Positions 101 to 45,718 of a DNA stretch of 64,000 nucleotides are shown here, piece after piece. Source of the DNA: Fidelibacterota bacterium (GTDB lineage: Bacteria > Fidelibacterota > UBA8477 > JABMPR01); contig JABHBL010000019.1 of assembly GCA_018673925.1 (NCBI GenBank), positions 45,960 to 109,959 of the forward strand. The letters run 5' to 3'. The notes under the pieces were generated by a model, which saw nothing but the letters and a program-made list of their open reading frames with translations, had not been told where the DNA came from and ran no database searches. Each line of letters starts with the position of its first letter. Within the stretch, counting starts at the first letter, position 1. Made by a program: the position numbers and the translations under genes.

Positions 101-487
101 ATGGAACCAATAAAACAAAGATATAGCCGTCAGCGAGAAACCATCCTTCAGATCGTACAGAGTACGCTCGTACACCCCAATGCTGATTGGGTCTACAAAG
201 AGACCAGAAAATTGATTCCCAACATTAGCCTGGGTACAGTATACAGGAATTTGAACCAACTCGTTGAAAGTGGTCAGATTCTCAAGCTAAAAGATGAAGC
301 CATGGTACGCTACGATGGAAATACAGGGCAACACGATCACTTCAGGTGCTCCAAGTGTGGCAAGTGGTATGATGTGGAGCTGATTGATCAATCCATCTTT
401 AAATCCTTTGCTGAGAAACATGATTTTCGGATTGAGTCTTTTAATCTTGAATTGGAAGGTACCTGTAAGAGCTGTCTCGACTCGTGA
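101..487 (+). CDS. Fur-family metalloregulator (Zur/PerR-like)
   Basis: 128 aa; HDHFRCSKCG plus C-terminal CKSC (two CxxC pairs = structural Zn site); winged-helix N-term typical of the Fur family. Confidence 0.8.
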   Translation: MEPIKQRYSRQRETILQIVQSTLVHPNADWVYKETRKLIPNISLGTVYRNLNQLVESGQILKLKDEAMVRYDGNTGQHDHFRCSKCGKWYDVELIDQSIFKSFAEKHDFRIESFNLELEGTCKSCLDS

Positions 488-551: not shown

Positions 552-1253
552 CTATTGAAACTGGATATTATAGCCTTTACTGGCCCAACCCATAATTCCC
601 ATACGCAAATTCATCACATCCTTATAGCCCTTATCCAAAAGGATCTTGGATGCTGTAGTGCTGCGATTACCTGTGGCACAGTAAATCAAAATTGGTTGAT
701 TCTGATACTGCTCTAATTCACCTGCTCTAGCTTGAAGGTCTTGCAAAGGAATCAATATAGCTCCCTTTATATATCCCCTACTAAATTCATTGGCAGTTCG
801 GACATCTAATAGCAAAGGTGGATTCTTCATTACTATTTTCCAGGCTTCTTCAGCACCCAATTCACGATAGTTGGATTGGCGTAATTCTACGACCTCTATT
901 TCTCCCACCTTATCACCAATTGTAAATTGATAGCTACCCGTTATTTTCATTTTGAAGAAGGGCTGATCCAAGGTGTTGTCTTTAAGAACGACACTTACAC
1001 CCAATTCAGCTATATCGAGGGGATATTCTATCTGGGCTTTACCCTGATCGTCAATGTAGAATTTTACGTAGTCACCGCGGTAAACAACCAGCTTCGTTGA
1101 ATCACTTTTCATACTTATAGGAAGATGGCGATAACCACCCTGAACCTTACCAGACACATCTACAGGAGAACCACTACCTCCACCTGAATTATCACTACAT
1201 GAAAACATCAATACCCCACTCATCAATACTATGCTAATAATTTTAAATTTCAT
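552..1253 (-). CDS. lipoprotein with C-terminal rhodanese (sulfurtransferase) domain
   Basis: signal peptide + Cys lipobox (LMFSCS); C-terminal LLLDVRTANEF...IYCATGNRS rhodanese active-site Cys loop; GGAGG RBS. Confidence 0.75.
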   Translation of the reverse strand: MKFKIISIVLMSGVLMFSCSDNSGGGSGSPVDVSGKVQGGYRHLPISMKSDSTKLVVYRGDYVKFYIDDQGKAQIEYPLDIAELGVSVVLKDNTLDQPFFKMKITGSYQFTIGDKVGEIEVVELRQSNYRELGAEEAWKIVMKNPPLLLDVRTANEFSRGYIKGAILIPLQDLQARAGELEQYQNQPILIYCATGNRSTTASKILLDKGYKDVMNLRMGIMGWASKGYNIQFQ

Positions 1254-4915: not shown

Positions 4916-5698
4916 TCAATTCCGGGGAGGTCTTCTTAGATAAACACCTTCTAATTCTATATGTCCTTCAACCGTCTCCATGCCTTCCTTGGAAGAAAGG
5001 AGTGAATAATTAAGATTGGTGATTGCATCAGCATTTTCCTGGAGGCATAGATACAGCATGGATCTAAATAGATCTTCAAGAGTCGCCTCATCATTTCCCA
5101 CAATTTTGATATAGCCACTCTCGATAAATGCTTGATTCGCTTTGGGAATATATAGAACAGGGAAATTATTTGATCTTCGAAGTGGCTTAGGCTTCCAGGG
5201 AGTGACAATATGATCGACAATAACATCTTGAATTAGCTTTGGTTCAAATTTGCGGTTCTTGGTGATAAATTTTAATAGAGGGACTTGTACTGGATTGGTA
5301 TCTGGATTTTCAGCTGGAAATGCCGCTAGTCCCGCTGGACCAAATGAGGCACCAATATAGTAGCTTAGCTTATCACCATTCATATAGGCTGCGGGGATAT
5401 CGCAGTACCAGGCACCACTTTCTTCATAAAAAGTTAGTTCCTGATAGACCATTTTACCCTGCTCTCGAATGAAGAGTTTGACAAAATCAGGATCAGCAAG
5501 GTAGTGAGGCAAAATGACTTCCAGCTGTCCAGGGACCCCCTGGAGAAAATGATCAGGTGGATTATGGTAAATCTCAAATGAAAACCCCTGAGAACAGGAA
5601 CCAAGCAGGAGAAAGGCTACTACAATGGCTCTAGTTATCACTGAATTGAATTCCCGCAGTGGATAAATATTGATAAAGTCTGAAGTTATAATCATCAA
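4916..5698 (-). CDS. hypothetical lipoprotein
   Basis: hydrophobic segment ending in LLLGSCSQ (lipobox) about 20 aa into the ORF; true start probably downstream of the annotated Met (68 nt overlap with the upstream ORF otherwise). Confidence 0.4.
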   Translation of the reverse strand: MMIITSDFINIYPLREFNSVITRAIVVAFLLLGSCSQGFSFEIYHNPPDHFLQGVPGQLEVILPHYLADPDFVKLFIREQGKMVYQELTFYEESGAWYCDIPAAYMNGDKLSYYIGASFGPAGLAAFPAENPDTNPVQVPLLKFITKNRKFEPKLIQDVIVDHIVTPWKPKPLRRSNNFPVLYIPKANQAFIESGYIKIVGNDEATLEDLFRSMLYLCLQENADAITNLNYSLLSSKEGMETVEGHIELEGVYLRRPPRN

Positions 5699-6233
5699 CC
5701 AGTCTCTCTATCCTGGCAGCACTAATCAGTGTCTGTAAATAATACTGTTCTCGTAGTGCTTGTATTTCATACTGCCTACTCTCAAAGTAGCGTACTCCAC
5801 CAATCATGATAGCAGCATAACCGGGTATTTGATAAACCCACCCCTTACTCCATATAATTGCCAGATAGGTAACACCACCAATTGAGCTGATCATTGAAAA
5901 GACGCGCCTTGAGCGAAAGTCCTTCAAGAATCCAGCTTCCCTGGCTAGATGTTCCTCATAATCGACCAGGACACTTTCCTGACCCAGAAGATGCAATGAT
6001 TGTGAAAAACTCAGTGCTTCAGTGCCTCGATACAATTGCCAGGAGGAATCGGAAAACACTTCAAGTTTCAAGCTACTGCGTTGAAAAGCATCTGGCACTT
6101 TCAGTTTCAATAATTGGCTGTCAAATTCTGGATAAACTGTCAAGCTATCAACCTGACCAAATCCAGCTGTCATAAGGAATAGAAGCAGGGTCAGACACTT
6201 CAGATGGATTTTAGTGGAAATTATGCTGTTCAT
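5631..6233 (-). CDS. hypothetical secreted/membrane protein
   Basis: N-terminal signal peptide (LLLFLMTAGFG) and two C-terminal hydrophobic helices; no family recognised. Confidence 0.4.
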   Translation of the reverse strand: MNSIISTKIHLKCLTLLLFLMTAGFGQVDSLTVYPEFDSQLLKLKVPDAFQRSSLKLEVFSDSSWQLYRGTEALSFSQSLHLLGQESVLVDYEEHLAREAGFLKDFRSRRVFSMISSIGGVTYLAIIWSKGWVYQIPGYAAIMIGGVRYFESRQYEIQALREQYYLQTLISAARIERLVDDYNFRLYQYLSTAGIQFSDN

Positions 6234-9927: not shown

Positions 9928-11658
9928 TTGCGTTTTATTCTATATCAACGTTCTCAAAATTCTATTAAAATGTTTGCTATGGAAAATGGACTCAGAATAG
10001 CGCGCAATTTTTTGGGCCTGGTCATTAAATTGTCCATAATCCCCTGTGTTTTCTATATCTCACCTGGACTGATTCATGATCCAACTCCTGAAACTCTAAG
10101 TTCGCTTCTGGGAGGGATATTCATTCTACTTGGTCTATATGGGATGATGAGTTCTGATCTATTAATTCTAAGATTTGGAGATGGTAAACTTTACTTCTCT
10201 ACAAAAAGTTCACGTCTAGTGGATGTAGGGTTATATGCTAGAACGCGACAACCATTTTTTTGGTTTTTCTCGATCTACCAGTTTGGAATATTATTTGTAC
10301 TCACAGGTTTCGACGGGTGGGTTTTGCTGCTTTCTCTCAGTATTTCTTTGATTTACCTCCTTTGGCTTCTCCTGGTCCAGGAACCGCTCCTATCTAGGAC
10401 TTTGGGTAACTCATATCTTCAATACAGAAAAAATGTTCCCTTCTGGTATTGGAAATTTAAGATAGCCGAAAATCTCAAAATTAGTTTTCGCTCACAGTTT
10501 GTGTGGCTTATAGGTATGCTGATTATTCGGCCATGGTATAGAGTTAAAGTTGAGGGAGTTGATAATATTCCTCATAACAAACCCTTTCTAATCGTATCAA
10601 ACCATGAGTGCTATCTGGATCCATTCTTGTTTGCCATATTTGTACCCTATGAAATTAAATTTGTGACAACTGCTGATATCTTCACGACCCATTTGATGCG
10701 ATTTTTACTCAAGGGAACTGGTAGCTTTCCCATGCGCAGACATAAACAGGACTTAAAATCAATCCGCACCATGATTAGAATGATAAAAAAGGGTCAGGTT
10801 GTATGCATTTTCCCAGAGGGTGGCAGATCAACAGATGGTTCTCCCCTACCAATCCTTAAGGAAACCTTAAAATTAATCCAACACTGTAAGGTACCCATAT
10901 TACCAGTTCATCTGGATGGTGCCTATGAGATATGGCCCAGATGGGCGCCAAATCGCAGGCGCGGGAAGGTCACTGCCTCCTTCAAGCCCTTAATTCCACT
11001 AGAAACTCAATCGGATTTAAAAGATTTAGAGCACCAAATCAAAACCCAAATCTTTGCAGAGGAGAAAATCTTCCGTCCTGTGAAAAGTAGAGCAATTACC
11101 AGAGGCATGGAGCACTTACTATGGGCATGTTATAAGTGTCATACCCGCAATTCAATTGAGGTCATTTCAGGTCATAGTGTCAAGTGTAACCATTGCAATA
11201 CTGAGTGGCTGGTGGCAAATGATTATTCTTTGAAAACTTCCACAGAAAAAGAATCTATCTCCAGCATTCAATGGATTAATAAAATAGAAAATGATGTTTT
11301 AGAATATCCCCTTAATCTTGAGCATTCATTTGCCCTGGAAAATGGTGAATCAGTTCATCTCCACACCCCTATATTGAGATATACAAATGAGAAGACTGTG
11401 GTTGAGGGAAGTGATTTAAGTTTGACACTCTCAAATCAGAGAGTAGCACTATCTGATAAGCAAAAATTGATTCACTCATGGACTCTATCGAGCATCACGA
11501 TATTTACGATGGATTATTTCAATGCTGTTTCTATCGGTGTAGGGGGTGTCAGGCATAGCTTTAAACTTCCACCAGACGAGATCACTCTAAAATGGCAGAC
11601 TTATTTTGATATTCTTAAGGCTGAAAATCGAAAGAACGATGATAATTCTTTCCTATAA
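9928..11658 (+). CDS. tripartite fusion: ICMT/PEMT-like membrane methyltransferase domain + PlsC-type lysophospholipid acyltransferase + C-terminal zinc-ribbon domain
   Basis: N-term about 180 aa polytopic with LVDVGLYARTRQPFFW (cf. ICMT/PEMT LVT.G.Y...RHP.Y); middle has HX4D (SNHECYLD) and FPEGGRS acyltransferase motifs; C-term CYKCH...CNHC; TTG start (alternative ATG at 9970). Confidence 0.6.
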   Translation: MRFILYQRSQNSIKMFAMENGLRIARNFLGLVIKLSIIPCVFYISPGLIHDPTPETLSSLLGGIFILLGLYGMMSSDLLILRFGDGKLYFSTKSSRLVDVGLYARTRQPFFWFFSIYQFGILFVLTGFDGWVLLLSLSISLIYLLWLLLVQEPLLSRTLGNSYLQYRKNVPFWYWKFKIAENLKISFRSQFVWLIGMLIIRPWYRVKVEGVDNIPHNKPFLIVSNHECYLDPFLFAIFVPYEIKFVTTADIFTTHLMRFLLKGTGSFPMRRHKQDLKSIRTMIRMIKKGQVVCIFPEGGRSTDGSPLPILKETLKLIQHCKVPILPVHLDGAYEIWPRWAPNRRRGKVTASFKPLIPLETQSDLKDLEHQIKTQIFAEEKIFRPVKSRAITRGMEHLLWACYKCHTRNSIEVISGHSVKCNHCNTEWLVANDYSLKTSTEKESISSIQWINKIENDVLEYPLNLEHSFALENGESVHLHTPILRYTNEKTVVEGSDLSLTLSNQRVALSDKQKLIHSWTLSSITIFTMDYFNAVSIGVGGVRHSFKLPPDEITLKWQTYFDILKAENRKNDDNSFL

Positions 11659-14695: not shown

Positions 14696-14887
14696 TTATT
14701 TTTTATTTCTAAGCAATCCTAGTGAAGGATTATCAGGTATATCCGTGTGGCAGGAAGAATTGCAGCCACCGCAGCTAATTGACTCACTTTTAGGAGTCTT
14801 CCCCAGATTATAGAAATACTTCACTGTATACCAGAAGGCGATGGCGACAGCAAGGATCACCAGCAGGATATCAATTAACTGAGCCAA
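14696..14887 (-). CDS. FeoB-associated Cys-rich small membrane protein
   Basis: 63 aa; one TM then CGGCNSSCH; directly downstream of feoB (overlapping). Confidence 0.6.
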   Translation of the reverse strand: MAQLIDILLVILAVAIAFWYTVKYFYNLGKTPKSESISCGGCNSSCHTDIPDNPSLGLLRNKK

Positions 14888-17148
14888 TTAAACATCCTCC
14901 CAAAGTAGCTTACAGCAAAAGCTAAAGAGTAAGCAAGCCCTAGTGAATAGGCGATTGAAAATAAGGTATAAGCCCAGGTGCCCGTTTCCCGCCTAATGGC
15001 TGCCACCGTAGCCAAACATGGCGTGTAAAGTAAAGTGAAGACCAGGAAGCTTAATGCCACCAAAGGGGTCATCCCTGAAGACCTTAATCCACTGATAACA
15101 CCCTGACTTCCTTCATCGACATCCTCACCAACGCCAAACAGGACACCATAGGTTGAAACAACAATTTCTTTAGCGACAAAACCTGTGATAAGTGCCACGC
15201 TTTCTCGCCAGGTAAATCCAAGAGGTCTTACGATGGGTTCAAAAATTTTCCCCACGCGTCCAATCCATTTTTGCTCTGTTATATCTCCTATCTCCTGCTG
15301 ACGGAGACTAGAGAGCTGTTGGTTCTTCTCGCTGCTTAATTCTTTCTTCAATAGCTGATACTGCTCAAGAAGTTCCAGATAGCTGGAGCTGGATTCATAG
15401 ACTATCATCTCTGAGTGGTACCCTGAACGATCCTGATCGACAGATTTTTTAAATTTTGATTCCAGGGCTATAAATTGAGAGTCGTACTCTAGTGTCAGAG
15501 TGGTTCGTTCGCTTCCATAATCCCTATCCAGTTCAACCTCAGTTGGGAAATACCCCAGAACCCAGATGATGACTGATCCAACCAGGATAACGGTCCCCAT
15601 TTTCTGGATAAAAAGATAACCACGCTCCCAGGTATGCAGAACAAGTGAACGCAAGGTAGGACGTTGGTATGGGGGTAACTCCAGGACAAATGGTTTGGAC
15701 ATACCCTTCAAAATGGTTCGGCTAAAAAGCTTACCACTTCCAATAGCGGCAACAATACCTAGGATATACATTGAAAATATTACTGTTGCGGCATTTTCAG
15801 GAAAAAAGGCACCAGCTACGAGAACGTATACAGGTAAACGGGCGGAACAACTCATAAAGGGGTTTATGAGAACTGTGAGAATTCTATCTCGGCGTGATTC
15901 CAGAATACGGGTCCCCATTATTGCCGGTACATTACAGCCAAACCCCATAATCATAGGAATGAAGGCTTTTCCATGAAGACCAATATTGTGCATGACCCGG
16001 TCCATGATAAAGGCTACTCTGGCCATGTATCCTGAGTCTTCCAGCACGGCAATAATTAAGAATAAAATAAAAATATTGGGTAAAAATACTGCAATGGCCC
16101 CCACACCGCCGATGACGCCATCCACCAATAAACTGGCAAACATACTGTCAGGTAACAAGTCTGAGATAAAATTCATAAGAGCGACAAGACCCCTATCAAT
16201 CCAATCCATGGGTATCGAGCCTATGTCATAAGTCAGTTTAAACATAAGCCACATGAAAAGACCAAATATTGGCAAACCCAACCAACGATTTGTGAGGACT
16301 CGATCTATCTGGCGACTATAGTCCACAGAATCTACCAGACTTTCAACAACACATTCACGCATAGCACCTTGAATAAAACCGTACCTGGCACTGGATATGA
16401 TGGCGCGACCGGTATCCTTGAATAATCCCTCAATCCTGCCAACGGAGATCTTGGCCTGGTCAAGTATATCTGTTCCATTGCTATGGAGCCGAACTTCATC
16501 ACGAGTTTGCTTGTCTGATTCTAACAGTTTGATACTGGTCCATCGACTATGCTTGTCAGTGACATCATTCACTTGAATGAGTTGATGGAGTTTATCAATT
16601 TCTATTTCAAGATCTCTGGGATAGCAAATATCAATTAAACGCGCTTTCATTGAAATTTCGGTGCTCACACGTAAGATCTTCTCCTTAAGAAGATCAATAC
16701 CCTCGCCAGTGCGCCCAACTACAGGAACTACGGGGGCACCTAAAAGGGTAGCCAGGGTATCCACATCAATTTGTAGCCCCTTTTCATTGGCCATATCCAT
16801 CATATTGAGAACCAGGACCAGAGGCTTCCCCAATTCTATGAGTTGAGTGGTAAGAAAGAGGTTTCGCTCAAGGTTTGAGGCATCAATAATATTTACTACG
16901 ACATCAGCCTCATCATTTTCCAGGTACTGGCGAACAACTGTTTCCTCGGCAGAAAAGGCGGCTAATGAGTAAGTGCCAGGGAGATCAATAACGTCAAATT
17001 TGTGGTCTGATTGATTGTAGTGTCCTGATTTTTTCTCAACAGTTACTCCAGGCCAATTTCCCACCCGCTGCTTTGCACCAGTCAGGGCATTAAATATGGT
17101 GGTTTTACCACAATTGGGATTTCCAGCGACTGCGATGTTAAAATTCAT
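14875..17148 (-). CDS. feoB: ferrous iron transport protein B
   Basis: 757 aa; N-terminal G-domain IAVAGNPNCGKTTIFNALTG; polytopic C-terminal gate domain. Confidence 0.9.
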   Translation of the reverse strand: MNFNIAVAGNPNCGKTTIFNALTGAKQRVGNWPGVTVEKKSGHYNQSDHKFDVIDLPGTYSLAAFSAEETVVRQYLENDEADVVVNIIDASNLERNLFLTTQLIELGKPLVLVLNMMDMANEKGLQIDVDTLATLLGAPVVPVVGRTGEGIDLLKEKILRVSTEISMKARLIDICYPRDLEIEIDKLHQLIQVNDVTDKHSRWTSIKLLESDKQTRDEVRLHSNGTDILDQAKISVGRIEGLFKDTGRAIISSARYGFIQGAMRECVVESLVDSVDYSRQIDRVLTNRWLGLPIFGLFMWLMFKLTYDIGSIPMDWIDRGLVALMNFISDLLPDSMFASLLVDGVIGGVGAIAVFLPNIFILFLIIAVLEDSGYMARVAFIMDRVMHNIGLHGKAFIPMIMGFGCNVPAIMGTRILESRRDRILTVLINPFMSCSARLPVYVLVAGAFFPENAATVIFSMYILGIVAAIGSGKLFSRTILKGMSKPFVLELPPYQRPTLRSLVLHTWERGYLFIQKMGTVILVGSVIIWVLGYFPTEVELDRDYGSERTTLTLEYDSQFIALESKFKKSVDQDRSGYHSEMIVYESSSSYLELLEQYQLLKKELSSEKNQQLSSLRQQEIGDITEQKWIGRVGKIFEPIVRPLGFTWRESVALITGFVAKEIVVSTYGVLFGVGEDVDEGSQGVISGLRSSGMTPLVALSFLVFTLLYTPCLATVAAIRRETGTWAYTLFSIAYSLGLAYSLAFAVSYFGRMFNWLS

Positions 17149-17479: not shown

Positions 17480-17920
17480 CTACTGGGGTTTCTTACAATC
17501 AGAACAGATTCCAAAAATGTGCATGGTATGAGTCGAGGGAGTGAAATCATTTTCTTCACAAACTGATAGCTGTTGGGCTTCCATTTCCAGATTAAAGAAT
17601 TCGATGACCTTGCCACATTCCTCACATATGAGATGATCATGGTGTTCATCTTCGCCCTTACTTCGCTCAAAGCGCATCCGACCGTCTCCAAAATCCAATC
17701 GGGTAACCAGATCCTGCTCTGCTAGAGCTTCAAGGGAGCGATACACAGTTGCCCGGCTCACATTTTTTTGCTTCTTGAGCAACTCCAGGTAAATCTCTTC
17801 GGCATCAAAATGCTCATGGGTTGCATCTAATAATTTTAAAAGAGCAATTCGTTGAGTTGTTGCCTTTAGTTCATGCTCTCTGAGCACTTGTTTTAGTTGT
17901 TGATTTTCTGCTGCAGACAT
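17480..17920 (-). CDS. fur: ferric uptake regulator Fur
   Basis: KATTQRIALLKLL...ATVYRSLEALAEQDLV...EHHDHLICEECGKVIEF; start set at Met15 preceded by AGGAG (ORF track start 17962). Confidence 0.85.
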   Translation of the reverse strand: MSAAENQQLKQVLREHELKATTQRIALLKLLDATHEHFDAEEIYLELLKKQKNVSRATVYRSLEALAEQDLVTRLDFGDGRMRFERSKGEDEHHDHLICEECGKVIEFFNLEMEAQQLSVCEENDFTPSTHTMHIFGICSDCKKPQ

Positions 17921-17959
17921 AATCTCTTCTCCTCTCATTTTAAAAATAAGAATGAATCT

Positions 17960-18030
17960 CATCTACGCAAGTGCAAATAAGTCTCATTTAAATTAAGAAT
18001 CTATTAGATGAGAACTCTGTGGGGTGTTGC
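17960..18030 (-). promoter_or_regulatory. candidate Fur/metalloregulator operator upstream of the fur-feoAB operon (TCTCAT/ATGAGA repeats)
   Basis: three copies of TCTCAT within 60 bp including inverted pair TCTCAT-N20-ATGAGA; partial (11/19) match to the Fur box GATAATGATAATCATTATC on the transcribed strand. Confidence 0.25.
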
Positions 18031-29203: not shown

Positions 29204-30349
29204 TTATTGAAGTAGTCGAGTAATTTTCTTTATGAGAATCGCTGAAGCCTGCTGCACCAGTGCTTCATCACAAAATCGACCCAAAGAAATCCTGATGGTT
29301 CCCAGCTGATAATTCAAAGGAATGTGCATGGCTTCAAGAACACCAGAACCTTTCCCGTCGGCGCTATGACAGGCGGCACCTGCTGAAAGCATGACCTCAT
29401 CTAGGTTTGCCAGGATATCCAGGGCATTTAGTTGAGCAAAGCTGACACTCAGCGTATTGGGAAGTCTCGCTGTATTGCCGGCATTGACCCGAATTTCAGG
29501 AAATGCCTGCTTTAAACTTGCTTGCAGTCTATCACGTAGATTCTGTTGTCTGAGAATCTCTGATTCTAGTTTTTGGGAAGCAATTTCTGCTGCCATCCCC
29601 AGACCCACTATCTGAGCTACATTTTCAGTTCCTGCCCGCATTCCGTTTTCATGATTCGCACCATGTATGAGGGGTTCCAGATCCACCCCTTTCTTGATGT
29701 AGATCGCGCCAACTCCTTTGGGTGCGTACAATTTATGACCGGCCACGCTCAAGAGGTCACAATCTAAATCGCTAACATCGACGGGAATTTTTCCAACAGA
29801 CTGGGCTGCATCTGTATGAAATACAGCACCGGCAGTATGGGCGATCTCGGCTAACTCATCAATAGGTTGAAGACTACCAATCTCATTGTTGGCGTGCATC
29901 ACTGATACCAGAATGGTTTTTGAAGTGATGATCTCTTCCAGGTCATCAACCTGGACCACGCCTTGGCCATCGACAGGAAGATAGGTGATTCTGAAACCCT
30001 GATGTTGTAAGTATTGAACCACGTTGAGGATGGCGGGGTGTTCAACTTTTGACACAATAATATGCTGACCCTTACCAGCCTGTCTGGATGCAATACCTTT
30101 GAGCGCCATATTGTTGGATTCTGAGCCTCCAGAAGTAAAAATGATCTCCTCTGGCTTACATCTGATCAGACCAGCTACTTGCTCTCGAGCAAAATCAATG
30201 GCCTGTCTATTGTATTTTCCGAGACTATGATTGGAGGATGCGTTTCCAAAATGCGAATGATAAAAAGGCTCCATGGCTTCAAAAACCATTGGATCTATGG
30301 GAGTAGTAGCATTGTAATCGAGGTAAATATTTCCATTGGCTAATAACAT
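29204..30349 (-). CDS. cysteine desulfurase (NifS/IscS-like, aminotransferase class V)
   Basis: 381 aa; PLP-Lys in SVAGHKLYAPKGVGAIY; catalytic Cys in LSAGAACHS. Confidence 0.8.
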   Translation of the reverse strand: MLLANGNIYLDYNATTPIDPMVFEAMEPFYHSHFGNASSNHSLGKYNRQAIDFAREQVAGLIRCKPEEIIFTSGGSESNNMALKGIASRQAGKGQHIIVSKVEHPAILNVVQYLQHQGFRITYLPVDGQGVVQVDDLEEIITSKTILVSVMHANNEIGSLQPIDELAEIAHTAGAVFHTDAAQSVGKIPVDVSDLDCDLLSVAGHKLYAPKGVGAIYIKKGVDLEPLIHGANHENGMRAGTENVAQIVGLGMAAEIASQKLESEILRQQNLRDRLQASLKQAFPEIRVNAGNTARLPNTLSVSFAQLNALDILANLDEVMLSAGAACHSADGKGSGVLEAMHIPLNYQLGTIRISLGRFCDEALVQQASAILIKKITRLLQ

Positions 30350-40962: not shown

Positions 40963-42393
40963 TTAGGGTGAAAGTTGTCTGATATATTCCTCACCTCGGC
41001 TCAGGACGGAATCGTGATCCTCCGGCGAATGGAGTTTATTCAGCACATTTAGTGTGTATTCTCGCAACCTGCTTAATGCATCAGGTGAAAACTCAGTTTG
41101 CCACTGATTTAATGAATAACCTGGCCAAATCTGGCTGTGTTGTTCATGTATGTCTCGGTATTGAGCCAGGGTAGCCTCGGACAGGAGAAAGCTTCCTCCC
41201 GGTCCCACTGAATGGATATCTTTCAATGGATCGTTATTCTCATCCAATACAAAACCTGCTGCAAATTGTCTCACCTGACGAATCACTTCATCGGCATAGA
41301 CCACCGTGGTGGGTGAAAATGCCTGCGAATCAAAATTTCCCCCAACAAAAGGAGCCAGTCCCACCTTACCTATGGAATTGGTAAGATGATTCATCCACAA
41401 GGTACCACTGGCTAATAAATCTGGCCCCCATCCGGTACCACTACCAGATGTTCCAGCATGTGGAATGTGATAGTGATCCATCATCTCAGCACAAGCCAGG
41501 TTGACCAGCATGGTTTGAGATGTATAGGCGGAAATCATATTCTGCATTTCAAAAACAGAAGGTAGACTCCCTAAAATGACTGGTGTCCCAGGTTTAATTA
41601 ATTGAGAGAATACCAGACCTGCCAATAATTCAGCATTGAGCATGACTAGGGTGCCCTCAGCACTGATCGGTGCGGTTGCCCCCGACATCCCATAGCTGGA
41701 GAAAATGAAAGGTAGACCGTGATCGATGGTAGAAAACATTTTGTCTGTGGTGTCCTCATTTAACACCAGGGGCGTAATTGGATTGAAATATGGGAGCACA
41801 AATGGCTTTTGGGAGAGATTACCACGGAGATGTTCCAACATACTGAGAGCCAGATCAAATTGTTTCGGCTCAGAAATTAATATGCCTAGTGGTTTAGTTG
41901 TATTGGCCATCATCTCCAGGGTGCCTACTACCTCACCCATCTGGGTATCGTCGTTCTGGATCACCCCTGGAGTTGATACAAGATCAAATTGGGTAAGCGT
42001 ATTGCCAAGGGCTGTAGCGATCTCAACATGTTTCCGAGTAAAAGGGATGGCGGAGTCATTTTCAGGGTTCTGATACCAGGAGTTGGTCACTCCGATGCCA
42101 TAAATCGTTCCCGATGGCTGATGCCCTCCCATGGAGAAGGCCAAATTTCCGTCCCTATTATACATATCGATTTGAGCGGGTACAGACTGGAGAGCTTGCT
42201 CAACGATTTCACCGGGTATCCGTACAAGATTGTCGTCAAAACCACCAACTGCTTCTGAGAATACTGCTCTGGCGCGTTCTGAATCTACCCGTATCCCAGT
42301 GTGGGACAGCACTTTAAGGGAATCCTGGTGAACTTTTTGGATTTGCTCCCCATTGAGGATTGAAATGTGGGGTTTAATATGGTTCAGTACCAA
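40963..42393 (-). CDS. MttB-superfamily methyltransferase (non-pyrrolysine; trimethylamine / glycine-betaine:corrinoid methyltransferase-like)
   Basis: 476 aa; N-terminal LNGEQIQKVHQDSLKVLSHTGIRV... typical of the MttB/MtgB family; no in-frame TAG. Confidence 0.75.
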   Translation of the reverse strand: MVLNHIKPHISILNGEQIQKVHQDSLKVLSHTGIRVDSERARAVFSEAVGGFDDNLVRIPGEIVEQALQSVPAQIDMYNRDGNLAFSMGGHQPSGTIYGIGVTNSWYQNPENDSAIPFTRKHVEIATALGNTLTQFDLVSTPGVIQNDDTQMGEVVGTLEMMANTTKPLGILISEPKQFDLALSMLEHLRGNLSQKPFVLPYFNPITPLVLNEDTTDKMFSTIDHGLPFIFSSYGMSGATAPISAEGTLVMLNAELLAGLVFSQLIKPGTPVILGSLPSVFEMQNMISAYTSQTMLVNLACAEMMDHYHIPHAGTSGSGTGWGPDLLASGTLWMNHLTNSIGKVGLAPFVGGNFDSQAFSPTTVVYADEVIRQVRQFAAGFVLDENNDPLKDIHSVGPGGSFLLSEATLAQYRDIHEQHSQIWPGYSLNQWQTEFSPDALSRLREYTLNVLNKLHSPEDHDSVLSRGEEYIRQLSP

Positions 42394-44169: not shown

Positions 44170-45018
44170 TCAGGCAAAGGCACTGCTTAGTTCATCAAGA
44201 ATGTCCGAACAGCCCCCGCCCTTAATGAATTCGGAATGATCCTGAACATTTTCAAATTTTCTGCCAACGATGTTAGAACATTCGAATTCATAATTGCTGA
44301 CTGCCAAGAATTTCTCCATGGCCTCAAGGGCAGCTGGATTATTAAAATCTAACTTCTCACCAGGCTTCAAATCTTTAAGCATTCCCCTCAACCAAATCGC
44401 AGCACCGAGAGCCCCACAGGCACCGCCACTTAGTCCAATACCACCTGCTAAACCAGCAGCCATAACCTGATGTTCATCTGAAAGCCCCATTTTTTTGGCC
44501 AATAGTGCAGCGCAGCTCACGGGTTGTTGAGGGACATCAATTACTTCCTCAGCAAGAGTAGACTCAATTTCTTTGTATGCTTCCGGTGCAAATTTCGCAG
44601 CCATGCGAAAACAACCGATGGTTCCACCTTTTAGTAGAAAGAAGGTTACCATTTTTAGAGCAGAAGAAGTTTTGTCAATATCGGTGATTTCAAGACAGTT
44701 CATATGTTTATTCAGATCTTTAAATTTTTCAACCAACTTTTGGGATGAAATTACTGCCTTGGTTTCTGCCTGAGGTCCAGATCCAGAGAGCCTGTATGCT
44801 TCAGCTCCAGCAGCCAGGGCCGCTCCCCATATCATTCCACACTGATAGCCATGTTGCATGATACCACCAGCCAGTGGCATTGATGCCTTCTCCTCGGAGG
44901 TCATGCTATTGTCAAATCCCTGGTTGAGAACTCTCAACAAGGCTTCAGATCATGTACCTACTTTCAGGAATGCTCCTGCGGCTCCCATTCCCGTTACATT
45001 ACTTGTTGTTTTAGCCAT
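44170..45018 (-). CDS. C-GCAxxG-C-C family putative redox (seleno)protein; in-frame UGA (44950..44952) proposed to encode selenocysteine
   Basis: ATG at 45018 with GGGGAGAG SD encodes MAKTTSNVTGMGAAGAFLKVGT-TGA-SEALLRVLNQGF... continuous in the frame of the 256 aa TTG-initiated ORF; UGA aligns with the first conserved Cys of the family (F.K.GYNCAQAVL); downstream family motifs GYQCGMIWGAA, GCFR, GGACGALGAA, CSD; hairpin follows the UGA. Confidence 0.6.
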
Positions 45019-45043
45019 CTTCTCTCCCCTTTTTTTTACTCAG

Positions 45044-45718
45044 CTAGACTTTCTGTGCCAGAACAATGTCCACTGGTAAACCGAACATGGACATCTCTGT
45101 CACACTTCTAATATGAAAGCCATTTTCCTTGATACATTGTTCAACATAGATAGGTCGACAATCTACATATTTATTGAAGTTTTTCTGGGTCCATTCATAC
45201 AGATTGACGATGAACCCATTAATTGCTTTTTTGGACATGGATACAATGCAAAGTCGAGCTCCAGATTTTAATACTCGCTGACATTCTGATAGAACCACAG
45301 GAATTTCCGGTGTGTCGAACAATTCTAATGTGAAACTTGAATAAGCGGCGTCAAAGGAATTGTCAGCGTATGGCAGTTTCATGGCATCTCCGAGACACAA
45401 TTCTACAGAATCACTTATCTCTGCCTTGAGGAGTTTTGAGTGGGCAACATCCAGCATCCCTTGAGAAAGATCAACTCCAAAAACATTGCCCGTTTCACCG
45501 GTACTCTCGACCAGCTTAATCAAGCATTGTCCAGTTCCGAAACCCAACTCCAGGACTTGCTCCCCAGCTTGTATATCCAGGATCTGTAAACCCATTTCTT
45601 TATATTTTTTTTCAGAGAGACCAGCAAGCAAATCGTACCACCTACTCATCTTGTCATAACTGGCTCTGGCTTCTTCCCGGGATCTGGTTACTCTATTTAT
45701 GGGTGATGTGGTATTCAT
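45044..45718 (-). CDS. class I SAM-dependent methyltransferase (UbiE/Methyltransf_11-like)
   Basis: motif I VLELGFGTGQ, post-I acidic residue, motif II/III spacing. Confidence 0.75.
   Translation of the reverse strand: MNTTSPINRVTRSREEARASYDKMSRWYDLLAGLSEKKYKEMGLQILDIQAGEQVLELGFGTGQCLIKLVESTGETGNVFGVDLSQGMLDVAHSKLLKAEISDSVELCLGDAMKLPYADNSFDAAYSSFTLELFDTPEIPVVLSECQRVLKSGARLCIVSMSKKAINGFIVNLYEWTQKNFNKYVDCRPIYVEQCIKENGFHIRSVTEMSMFGLPVDIVLAQKV

Follow-up and report, generated by a model that had tools for sequence, protein, structure and literature searches.

Does the UGA codon that interrupts a gene of the C-GCAxxG-C-C family in a Fidelibacterota bacterium terminate translation, or does it encode selenocysteine (Sec)? 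The gene resides on the minus strand of a 64,000-nucleotide (nt) stretch of contig JABHBL010000019.1 (GenBank assembly GCA_018673925.1, positions 45,960 to 109,959). This stretch is called the window here, and coordinates are window positions unless a related locus is named. The host group is Candidatus Neomarinimicrobiota, which is the same as SAR406 or Marinimicrobia and is now named Fidelibacterota in the NCBI taxonomy. An initial annotation of the window, made from its letters and a list of open reading frames (ORFs), had proposed that this gene probably encodes a selenoprotein. Our analysis supports this proposal: 44170..45018 is very probably a genuine Sec-encoding gene that specifies a 282-residue selenoprotein. 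We favor this reading because the UGA falls on a Cys position, because the sequence on both sides of the UGA is coding, and because a covarying hairpin with the geometry of a bacterial Sec insertion sequence (bSECIS) is present only in loci that carry UGA.

An open reading frame interrupted by UGA

The predicted start codon is an ATG at 45018..45016, and the Shine–Dalgarno (SD)-like sequence GGGGAGAG can be read directly at 45029..45022, leaving a spacer of 3 nt. The 22 codons from this ATG to the UGA (45018..44953) read MAKTTSNVTGMGAAGAFLKVGT. They are followed by an in-frame TGA (44952..44950), after which the same frame continues with SEALLRVLNQGFDN and remains open for 259 codons until a stop is reached at 44172..44170. 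If the first TGA is read through, the complete gene has 282 codons plus the stop and encodes a two-domain protein with Sec as residue 23. This assignment draws on the translation, on profile scores, and on homologs that cover 99% of the protein. The ATG, the SD sequence, the 22 codons, the TGA, and the continuation in the same frame had all been described in the initial annotation, and each statement held when it was rechecked. The program-made ORF list gives TTG 44940 as the earliest possible gene start, for a product of 256 amino acids (aa), in agreement with the earlier remark that this ORF can be started only at a TTG. The family blocks GYQCGMIWGAA, GCFR, GGACGALGAA, and CSD, which had been singled out previously, are all found in the translation.

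UGA is not reassigned genome-wide, because it serves as the ordinary stop codon for 15 of the 44 well-supported genes in the window (20 others end with TAA and nine with TAG). Among the genes that end with UGA is an adenosine deaminase gene whose product covers the full Pfam profile. The normal stop of this gene is also the source of a second read-through match, which is trivial. A scan of the window for other ORFs with TGA read-through and a hairpin yielded no other candidate.

The UGA codon aligns with a conserved cysteine

Homologs of the read-through protein were sought among 5.8 billion proteins, and the top 120 matches were classified. Homologs with ∼60% identity are ∼280 aa in length, align with 99% of the read-through protein, and have the sequence GTVGTFLKVGT-C-SEAL across the site of the UGA. 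All 96 full-length matches among the top 120 carry Cys at the UGA-aligned position, and two more show a one-residue offset. Homology to the N terminus of these Cys forms (M-K...ISS-GTVGTFLKVGT-C) extends through the 22 residues that precede the UGA. Because full-length Cys homologs match across them, these residues, which current gene calls miss, appear to be the true N terminus of the protein, and the UGA sits on an invariant Cys.

Profile hidden Markov models (HMMs) place the UGA in the same way when Cys is substituted for Sec in the query. The read-through protein belongs to PF09719 (74.2 bits against a cut-off of 27, with two matched stretches) and to TIGR01909, the "C-GCAxxG-C-C family (seleno)protein" (61.1 bits against a cut-off of 47.4). 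The alignments to both models begin at the UGA residue. The initial claim that the UGA is aligned with the first conserved Cys of the family is therefore borne out, both by the start of these alignments at the U position and by its location opposite the invariant Cys of the N-terminal domain in full-length homologs.

An alternative explanation is that the UGA is a genuine stop codon. If this is true, then the protein starts at TTG 44940 or ATG 44904, and the 22 preceding codons represent either a relic or a leader peptide. Database annotations of every close relative follow this scheme: The closest matches (100%, 91%, 80%, 79%, and 77% identity, and others) are 226–260 aa in length and start just past the UGA. 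In addition, UGA normally terminates translation in this genome, and the Sec machinery of the host is only predicted. However, the truncated calls disagree on the first residue (L27, R29, M39, M47, and M54), a pattern typical of gene-caller artifacts, and 21 of the top 120 matches are N-truncated at or just after the UGA position. A truncated product would also lose one of the four conserved Cys residues of the first domain, and homology with the Cys-form N terminus runs through the 22 codons up to a UGA located exactly at the invariant Cys. Two further features described below argue against termination: A start codon, an SD sequence, and codon periodicity are kept 5′ of the TGA, and TGA loci alone have a hairpin in which synonymous sites are frozen and a base pair has changed in a compensatory manner. 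With these data in hand, we consider a genuine stop very unlikely.

Another form of misannotation is represented by P0076, a 284-aa ENA record among the top 120 matches that has W at the Sec position (…FLKEGAWSAALLRV…). The Trp was evidently introduced by a gene caller that translated TGA with a code in which UGA specifies Trp.

Conservation of the UGA codon in related loci

A scan of one genome per species, which assigned the window to Candidatus Neomarinimicrobiota, recovered 80 loci and, when these are combined with earlier loci and the window, 83 can be classified by the codon aligned with the UGA. This codon is TGA in 56 loci, TGC in 18, and TGT in nine, although the sampled loci were ranked by how closely they resemble a Sec-form query, so that Sec forms are overrepresented, and the loci share descent and thus do not count as independent events. 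Judged by record titles, the TGA loci represent at least 15 named groups, including Zixibacteria, Calditrichota, Nitrospirae, Gemmatimonadota, Cloacimonadota, Ignavibacteria, Chloroflexota, Anaeromyxobacteraceae (Myxococcota), Acidobacteriota, Planctomycetaceae (Planctomycetes), Armatimonadota, Lentisphaeria, Bacteroidota, and others. A neighbor-joining tree for counting switches between Sec and Cys was star-like and unresolved, and no number of switches is drawn from it.

TGA occupies the same codon in every syntenic SAR406 locus that was read as DNA (L001–L004 and L008–L012). The proteins encoded by L008–L012 are 75%–92% identical to that of the window, and the best match in the species scan is likewise 92% identical. 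Where gene tables are available, the syntenic loci share the gene order RNase D, methyltransferase, selenoprotein gene, RsgA, MttB-like protein, and Dus. The upstream ATG and SD sequence are kept beside the TGA in the syntenic loci. More broadly, a script detected an SD-like motif and an in-frame start 19–23 codons 5′ of the TGA in ∼53 of the 56 TGA loci. Entropy values at the three codon positions 5′ of the TGA are 1.02/0.85/1.61, compared with 1.17/0.94/1.62 for the Cys forms. Because the start, the SD sequence, and the three-periodic entropy match those of the Cys forms, the region upstream of the UGA appears to be translated and to be under coding constraint.

These comparisons also bear on the possibility that the gene is a pseudogene, or that a sequencing or assembly error has turned TGC or TGT into TGA. 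Only one base change is needed to convert TGY to TGA. Moreover, a Cloacimonadota metagenome-assembled genome (MAG) has an extra in-frame TAA just past the hairpin (locus L062, about 10022..10060; LLRVLN*S), which may reflect a frameshift or an assembly error or mark this Sec-form locus as a pseudogene. However, the same TGA recurs in independent assemblies, as represented by 13 contigs that encode a 100% identical protein and by the 56 loci noted above. Apart from the TGA, the ORF is intact, and purifying selection acts on the sequence to either side of this codon. This explanation is effectively refuted by the comparative data, and we assign it a negligible probability.

A conserved hairpin follows the UGA codon

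The 16-nt sequence GUUGAGAGUUCUCAAC (44938..44923) is predicted to fold into a 6-bp stem, GUUGAG/CUCAAC, capped by an AGUU loop (44932..44929), with a lower extension of 3–4 bp. The stem begins 11 nt past the UGA. The minimum free energy (MFE) of the window hairpin is −11.9 kcal/mol when 45 nt are folded and −12.7 kcal/mol when 48 nt are folded. Published criteria for bSECIS elements (PMC13188914, section 5) specify a loop of 3–9 nt, an upper stem of 4–16 bp, a G in the first two loop positions, a UGA-to-loop distance of 16–37 nt, and an MFE of −7.5 kcal/mol or lower. The window hairpin has a 4-nt loop, an upper stem of 6 bp, a G at loop position 2 that is followed by U, and a UGA-to-loop distance of 17 nt, and thus it conforms on all four counts.

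We ascribe significance to this hairpin because of the comparison between orthologs, and single-sequence statistics are not used as evidence. The mean MFE of the 45 nt past the aligned codon is −11.4 kcal/mol for 52 distinct TGA sequences versus −5.8 kcal/mol for 27 Cys sequences (Mann–Whitney p=2.2e-10). The exact core GUUGAG-AGUU-CUCAAC occurs in 33 TGA loci, and a variant, GUCGAG-AGUU-CUCGAC, occurs in six. The core motif is absent elsewhere in the 1.37 Mb of sequence examined. We aligned 38 distinct sequences of the window hairpin type (alignment A2), in which the six upper-stem pairs are 95%–100% paired. Pair 17-28 is U-A in 31 sequences and C-G in seven, with none unpaired, and pair 19-26 is A-U in 35 sequences and G-U in three. 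The covariation score of this alignment is above those of all 500 shuffles and of every slid control.

The coding sequence offers a second line of evidence. Entropy at third codon positions is 0–0.18 bits within the hairpin versus 1.4–1.9 bits in flanking codons. The Sec type encodes LLRVLN at this site, whereas the Cys forms encode LFHVLN, LCNVLD, and similar peptides with free synonymous sites. Synonymous sites are frozen within the hairpin, which shows that selection acts on the RNA, in addition to any constraint on the peptide LLRVLN.

Not all TGA loci carry the same hairpin. A second design (type D), AUGAGCG-(8 nt)-CGCUCAU, occupies the same place and encodes LMSVVD-S. It is found mainly in Chloroflexota, Nitrospirae, and Eisenbacteria (L019, L033, L041, L048, L058, L073, L074, L076, L077, and L084). 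A third design (type E), GAUCAA-CGUGC-UUGAUC, is also located at this site and encodes LINVLDR (L040, L069, L079, and L080). We hold type E less firmly, as an alternative fold that includes the UGA competes with it. All hairpin types keep the GU of a conserved Val codon at or near the apical loop, which suggests that the SECIS may have been rebuilt several times around one codon.

Evidence against selenocysteine insertion and a proposed mechanism

Several observations weigh against the conclusion that this is a selenoprotein gene, as do the two limits on the locus sample stated above. When considered as a single sequence, the fold is unremarkable, with z values of −0.30 for 66 nt (72 of 200 shuffles are as good) and −1.51 for 48 nt. 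A hairpin with ≥6 bp and loosely bSECIS-like geometry follows ∼15% of the TGA trinucleotides in the window, and for 2.2% the hairpin is also equally stable. No Rfam SECIS model matches the window at the gathering threshold, nor does any match 44850..45050 up to E=10. Furthermore, the lower stem (within 44910..44949, formed, for example, by CCU at 44942..44940 with AGG at 44921..44919 and by outer UC.GA / UU.GA pairs) is predicted by folding and is not conserved: Pairs 12-33 and 13-32 of alignment A2 are unpaired in 25 and 18 of the 38 sequences, respectively. The pairs of this extended stem are either confined to the lineage or a by-product of the conserved S-E and F-D codons. The SECIS-like hairpin proposed in the initial annotation thus stands in part. 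Folding returns its GUUGAG-AGUU-CUCAAC core as the predicted structure, and the 6-bp stem, the AGUU loop, and the bSECIS geometry are conserved in orthologous loci, with compensatory change, only where TGA is present. The three additional pairs that had been included in the stem are lineage-specific.

The genes for Sec decoding are also missing from the sequences that were searched. ARAGORN and Rfam found no tRNA-Sec in the window, where the only tRNA is tRNA-Asp, and Pfam scans found no selA, selB, or selD among the ∼40 ORFs scanned. Likewise, ARAGORN detected no tRNA-Sec in 32 related loci, and no sel genes were present in the scanned flanks of related loci. Three SAR406 single-cell genomes have been listed with an "orphan" SelD (Peng et al. 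2016; PMC5029168). We found nothing beyond this table in the literature on Sec use in Marinimicrobia, SAR406, or Marinisomatota.

A related possibility is that the UGA is recoded in a SECIS- and SelB-dependent manner with Cys or another residue, either by a Cys-charged tRNA(Sec)-like tRNA or by near-cognate Trp or Cys read-through. The identity of the inserted amino acid is predicted from sequence, and systems that recode Sec codons to Cys reportedly exist in some uncultured bacteria. However, the family is already catalogued with selenoproteins, and SelD has been reported in SAR406 genomes. If the product were Cys, then >50 genomes from many phyla would have retained UGA and a SECIS for this purpose, which is unparsimonious, given that TGC and TGT are used freely in sister lineages. 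We therefore give recoding with a residue other than Sec a small chance, if slightly better than that of a genuine stop.

For the selenoprotein reading that we prefer, the following mechanism can be proposed. Translation would start at ATG 45018, and the ribosome would reach the UGA at 44952..44950. The hairpin GUUGAG-AGUU-CUCAAC, located 11 nt past this codon, would serve as the bacterial SECIS. If decoding proceeds as for E. coli fdhF, SelB-GTP carrying Sec-tRNA(Sec) would bind the apical G-U loop and supply Sec when the UGA is in the A site, such that Sec would replace the first conserved Cys of the N-terminal domain. The UGA at 44172..44170 is not followed by such a hairpin and would be read by release factor 2 (RF2), resulting in termination. 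With lower confidence, we propose that Sec tunes the reactivity of the N-terminal site and that the protein works with a co-transcribed S-adenosylmethionine (SAM) methyltransferase. This scheme demands that the host encode selA, selB, selC, and selD elsewhere in its genome. Since the terminal stop is also UGA, a single mRNA would use this codon both for Sec, where the hairpin trails it, and for termination.

Two other genes have some relation to selenoproteins. The product of the gene at 552..1253 (minus strand) is 233 aa in length, has a rhodanese domain at its C terminus, and is weakly similar to the NCBIfam model "rhodanese-related (seleno)protein" (36.6 versus 115 bits). This gene was not flagged in the window-wide scan for TGA read-through and hairpins. 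In related locus L007, a 173-aa gene call located 2 kb upstream (5642..6163) has a weak Pfam match to GRDB (glycine reductase selenoprotein B) and may be another selenoprotein that has been cut at a UGA.

Domain architecture and possible function

The read-through protein is a tandem duplication of the four-Cys C-GCAxxG-C-C domain, because its two halves align at their Cys positions. When the halves are aligned with each other (alignment A4), U23 is opposite C169, C60 is opposite C201, C108 is opposite C247, and C136 is roughly aligned with C270. The protein has two four-Cys sites, U23/C60/C108/C136 and C169/C201/C247/C270, and the order C...GCAxxG...C...C is present. In the N-terminal half, the first Cys is replaced by Sec and the motif is degenerate (YQCGMIWG). 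The canonical GGACGALG is located in the C-terminal half. The remaining Cys residues of the N-terminal domain (within 44611..44841) are C60 (44841..44839, in GYQCGMIWG), C108 (44697..44695), and C136 (44613..44611), and their columns do not vary in alignments A1 and A3. The C-terminal domain, with C169, C201 (in GGACGALG), C247, and C270, corresponds to the second Pfam stretch and spans 44209..44514. The protein is not a member of two narrower families: NF045669 (DVU_1555 family) gives 41.3 bits against a cut-off of 103 and matches the C-terminal half only, and NF045501 (HUGP/GUXX-star fusion selenoprotein) gives 22.4 bits against a cut-off of 325.

No solved structure for the read-through protein was detected by sequence searches or by Foldseek. 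The AlphaFold model of P0009, a Cys homolog with 62% identity, is all-alpha, with a mean predicted local distance difference test (pLDDT) score of 78 and a predicted template modeling (pTM) score of 0.84. The fold resembles that of the N-terminal non-heme iron-center domain of split-Soret cytochrome c (PDB 1h21), with 16% identity in the structural alignment. The translated window protein contains no CxxCH heme motifs, and it does not have the diheme c-type cytochrome domain. Because CxxCH is absent, the window protein is not a cytochrome, and it shares only the Cys-rich domain with split-Soret cytochrome c.

We propose with modest confidence that each half of the protein holds an iron–sulfur-type center or a redox-active chalcogenide/thiol site. 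With the same modest confidence, Sec is proposed to be the first ligand or the nucleophile of the N-terminal site. The match to the iron-center fold of split-Soret cytochrome c hints that Sec may be an iron ligand. Our confidence that the protein has an iron-center function is low.

Neighboring genes

A class I SAM methyltransferase gene, UbiE/MenG-like, is located upstream on the same strand (45044..45718). It is assigned by Pfam and NCBIfam matches that are all below equivalog cut-offs, among them 53 bits for NF045667 (DVU_1556) against a cut-off of 155. Its stop is 25 nt before the selenoprotein ATG, and it is a probable operon partner of the selenoprotein gene. The pair is likewise adjacent in the SAR406-type loci for which gene tables were examined (L001–L004). 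In 12 of 79 loci, which include Lentisphaeria, Ignavibacteria, Anaeromyxobacteraceae, and Anaerolineae, a related methyltransferase gene is found no more than 4 kb away. The loci in which a methyltransferase accompanies the C-GCAxxG-C-C gene are L001–L004, L008, L010, L022, L034, L042, L052, L065, and L076. This recurrence suggests that the methyltransferase and the C-GCAxxG-C-C protein form a two-gene module.

Clustering of neighbors across the 79 loci revealed no universal partner. A putative ADH_zinc_N-like protein, identified by inspection only, is encoded near the gene in 17 of the 79 loci, and the two largest neighbor clusters are artifacts caused by antisense ORFs. A functional link to the methyltransferase, offered earlier as speculation, gains weak support from its adjacency in SAR406 loci and in some other phyla, which echoes the DVU_1556/DVU_1555 pair. 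A link to the cysteine desulfurase gene (29204..30349), raised at the same time, is rejected. This gene is NifS/IscS-like (456 bits for NifS versus 104 bits for SclA), lies at a distance of 15 kb, and shows no synteny with the selenoprotein gene.

Other genes in the window can be noted. An ORF at 40963..42393 (minus strand) that opens with TTG encodes an MttB-superfamily methyltransferase (TIGR02369, 202 bits against a cut-off of 525). Because the ORF is uninterrupted, it is apparently a non-pyrrolysine member of this superfamily. Its synteny with RsgA and Dus is kept in SAR406 loci. Two Fur-family regulators and the ferrous-iron transporter FeoB are encoded at 101..487 (plus strand), 14875..17148 (minus strand), and 17480..17962 (minus strand).

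Implications

That the C-GCAxxG-C-C family includes selenoproteins is already known and will not surprise a specialist. As early as 2007, such proteins were catalogued as a "putative redox protein" of Olavius symbionts (Zhang and Gladyshev; PMC1976440), and "form 1" and "form 2" C-GCAxxG-C-C selenoproteins, represented by MGD8741185.1 and WP_012158890.1, have since been listed (PMC13188914). The initial remark that Sec forms are known is confirmed by these sources and by the "(seleno)protein" in the NCBIfam model name. As far as we have seen, the family literature does not mention a two-domain subfamily that contains Sec in most sampled lineages and yet has been deposited in truncated form. 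Its occurrence throughout SAR406 and the existence of three hairpin designs at one site are also absent from this literature, as far as seen.

These findings are relevant to annotation, since every close public relative, including NCBI "(seleno)protein" records, is without its first catalytic or ligand residue. A subfamily-specific model with a marked Sec position would correct dozens of species-level genomes. The conserved Sec codon and SECIS in every SAR406 locus read as DNA suggest that this phylum uses the Sec-decoding trait, which bears on selenium demand in oxygen-minimum-zone and deep-ocean communities. In addition, one orthologous site at which Sec forms carry three hairpin designs and Cys forms carry none constitutes a natural data set on the origin of SECIS elements and on their constraint within coding sequence (LLRVLN versus LFHVLN).

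A far broader proposal can be formulated, in which the ∼280-aa two-domain subfamily is mainly composed of selenoproteins, spans at least 15 phyla, and has been overlooked through truncation. According to this proposal, Sec ligates an iron–sulfur-type center that operates with the partner SAM methyltransferase, and the SECIS has been rebuilt in at least three designs around a Val (GUN) codon. We regard this combination as speculative and rather unlikely. If it is true, then the protein would have a natural selenium-ligated iron center outside hydrogenases.

Comparison with known systems

The window protein resembles known C-GCAxxG-C-C selenoproteins in that it belongs to the same Pfam and TIGRFAM family, has a Sec/Cys pair at the conserved Cys, and has a SECIS-like hairpin directly 3′ of its UGA. 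It differs from them by its tandem two-domain organization of ∼280 aa and by a first motif that reads QCGMIWG rather than GCAxxG. Its subfamily could be compared with "form 1" and "form 2" by description, which omits the Sec position (PMC13188914). Public records of the subfamily, including P0004 and P0027 from NCBI, are N-truncated and leave Sec unmarked.

With split-Soret cytochrome c of D. desulfuricans (PDB 1h21), the protein shares the fold of the iron-center domain and no detectable sequence similarity. Unlike this cytochrome, it is devoid of CxxCH heme motifs and has no evident signal peptide. The center in 1h21 is reportedly a Cys-ligated [2Fe-2S] cluster.

The gene arrangement is similar to the DVU_1555/DVU_1556 pair (NF045669/NF045667), in which a class I SAM methyltransferase also resides directly beside a C-GCAxxG-C-C protein, and both models are matched. 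However, the scores are far below the cut-offs (41 versus 103 bits and 53 versus 155 bits), and only the pairing is analogous.

Finally, the minimal SECIS of fdhF is said to begin 11 nt past its UGA, the same spacing as in the window. Like the E. coli fdhF-type and consensus bSECIS elements (PMC13188914), the window hairpin is a stem-loop that lies within coding sequence immediately 3′ of the UGA, with a small loop that presents G and then U. In contrast to the fdhF type, its AGUU loop caps a perfect 6-bp stem that lacks a bulged U, and SelB is predicted to bind this structure.

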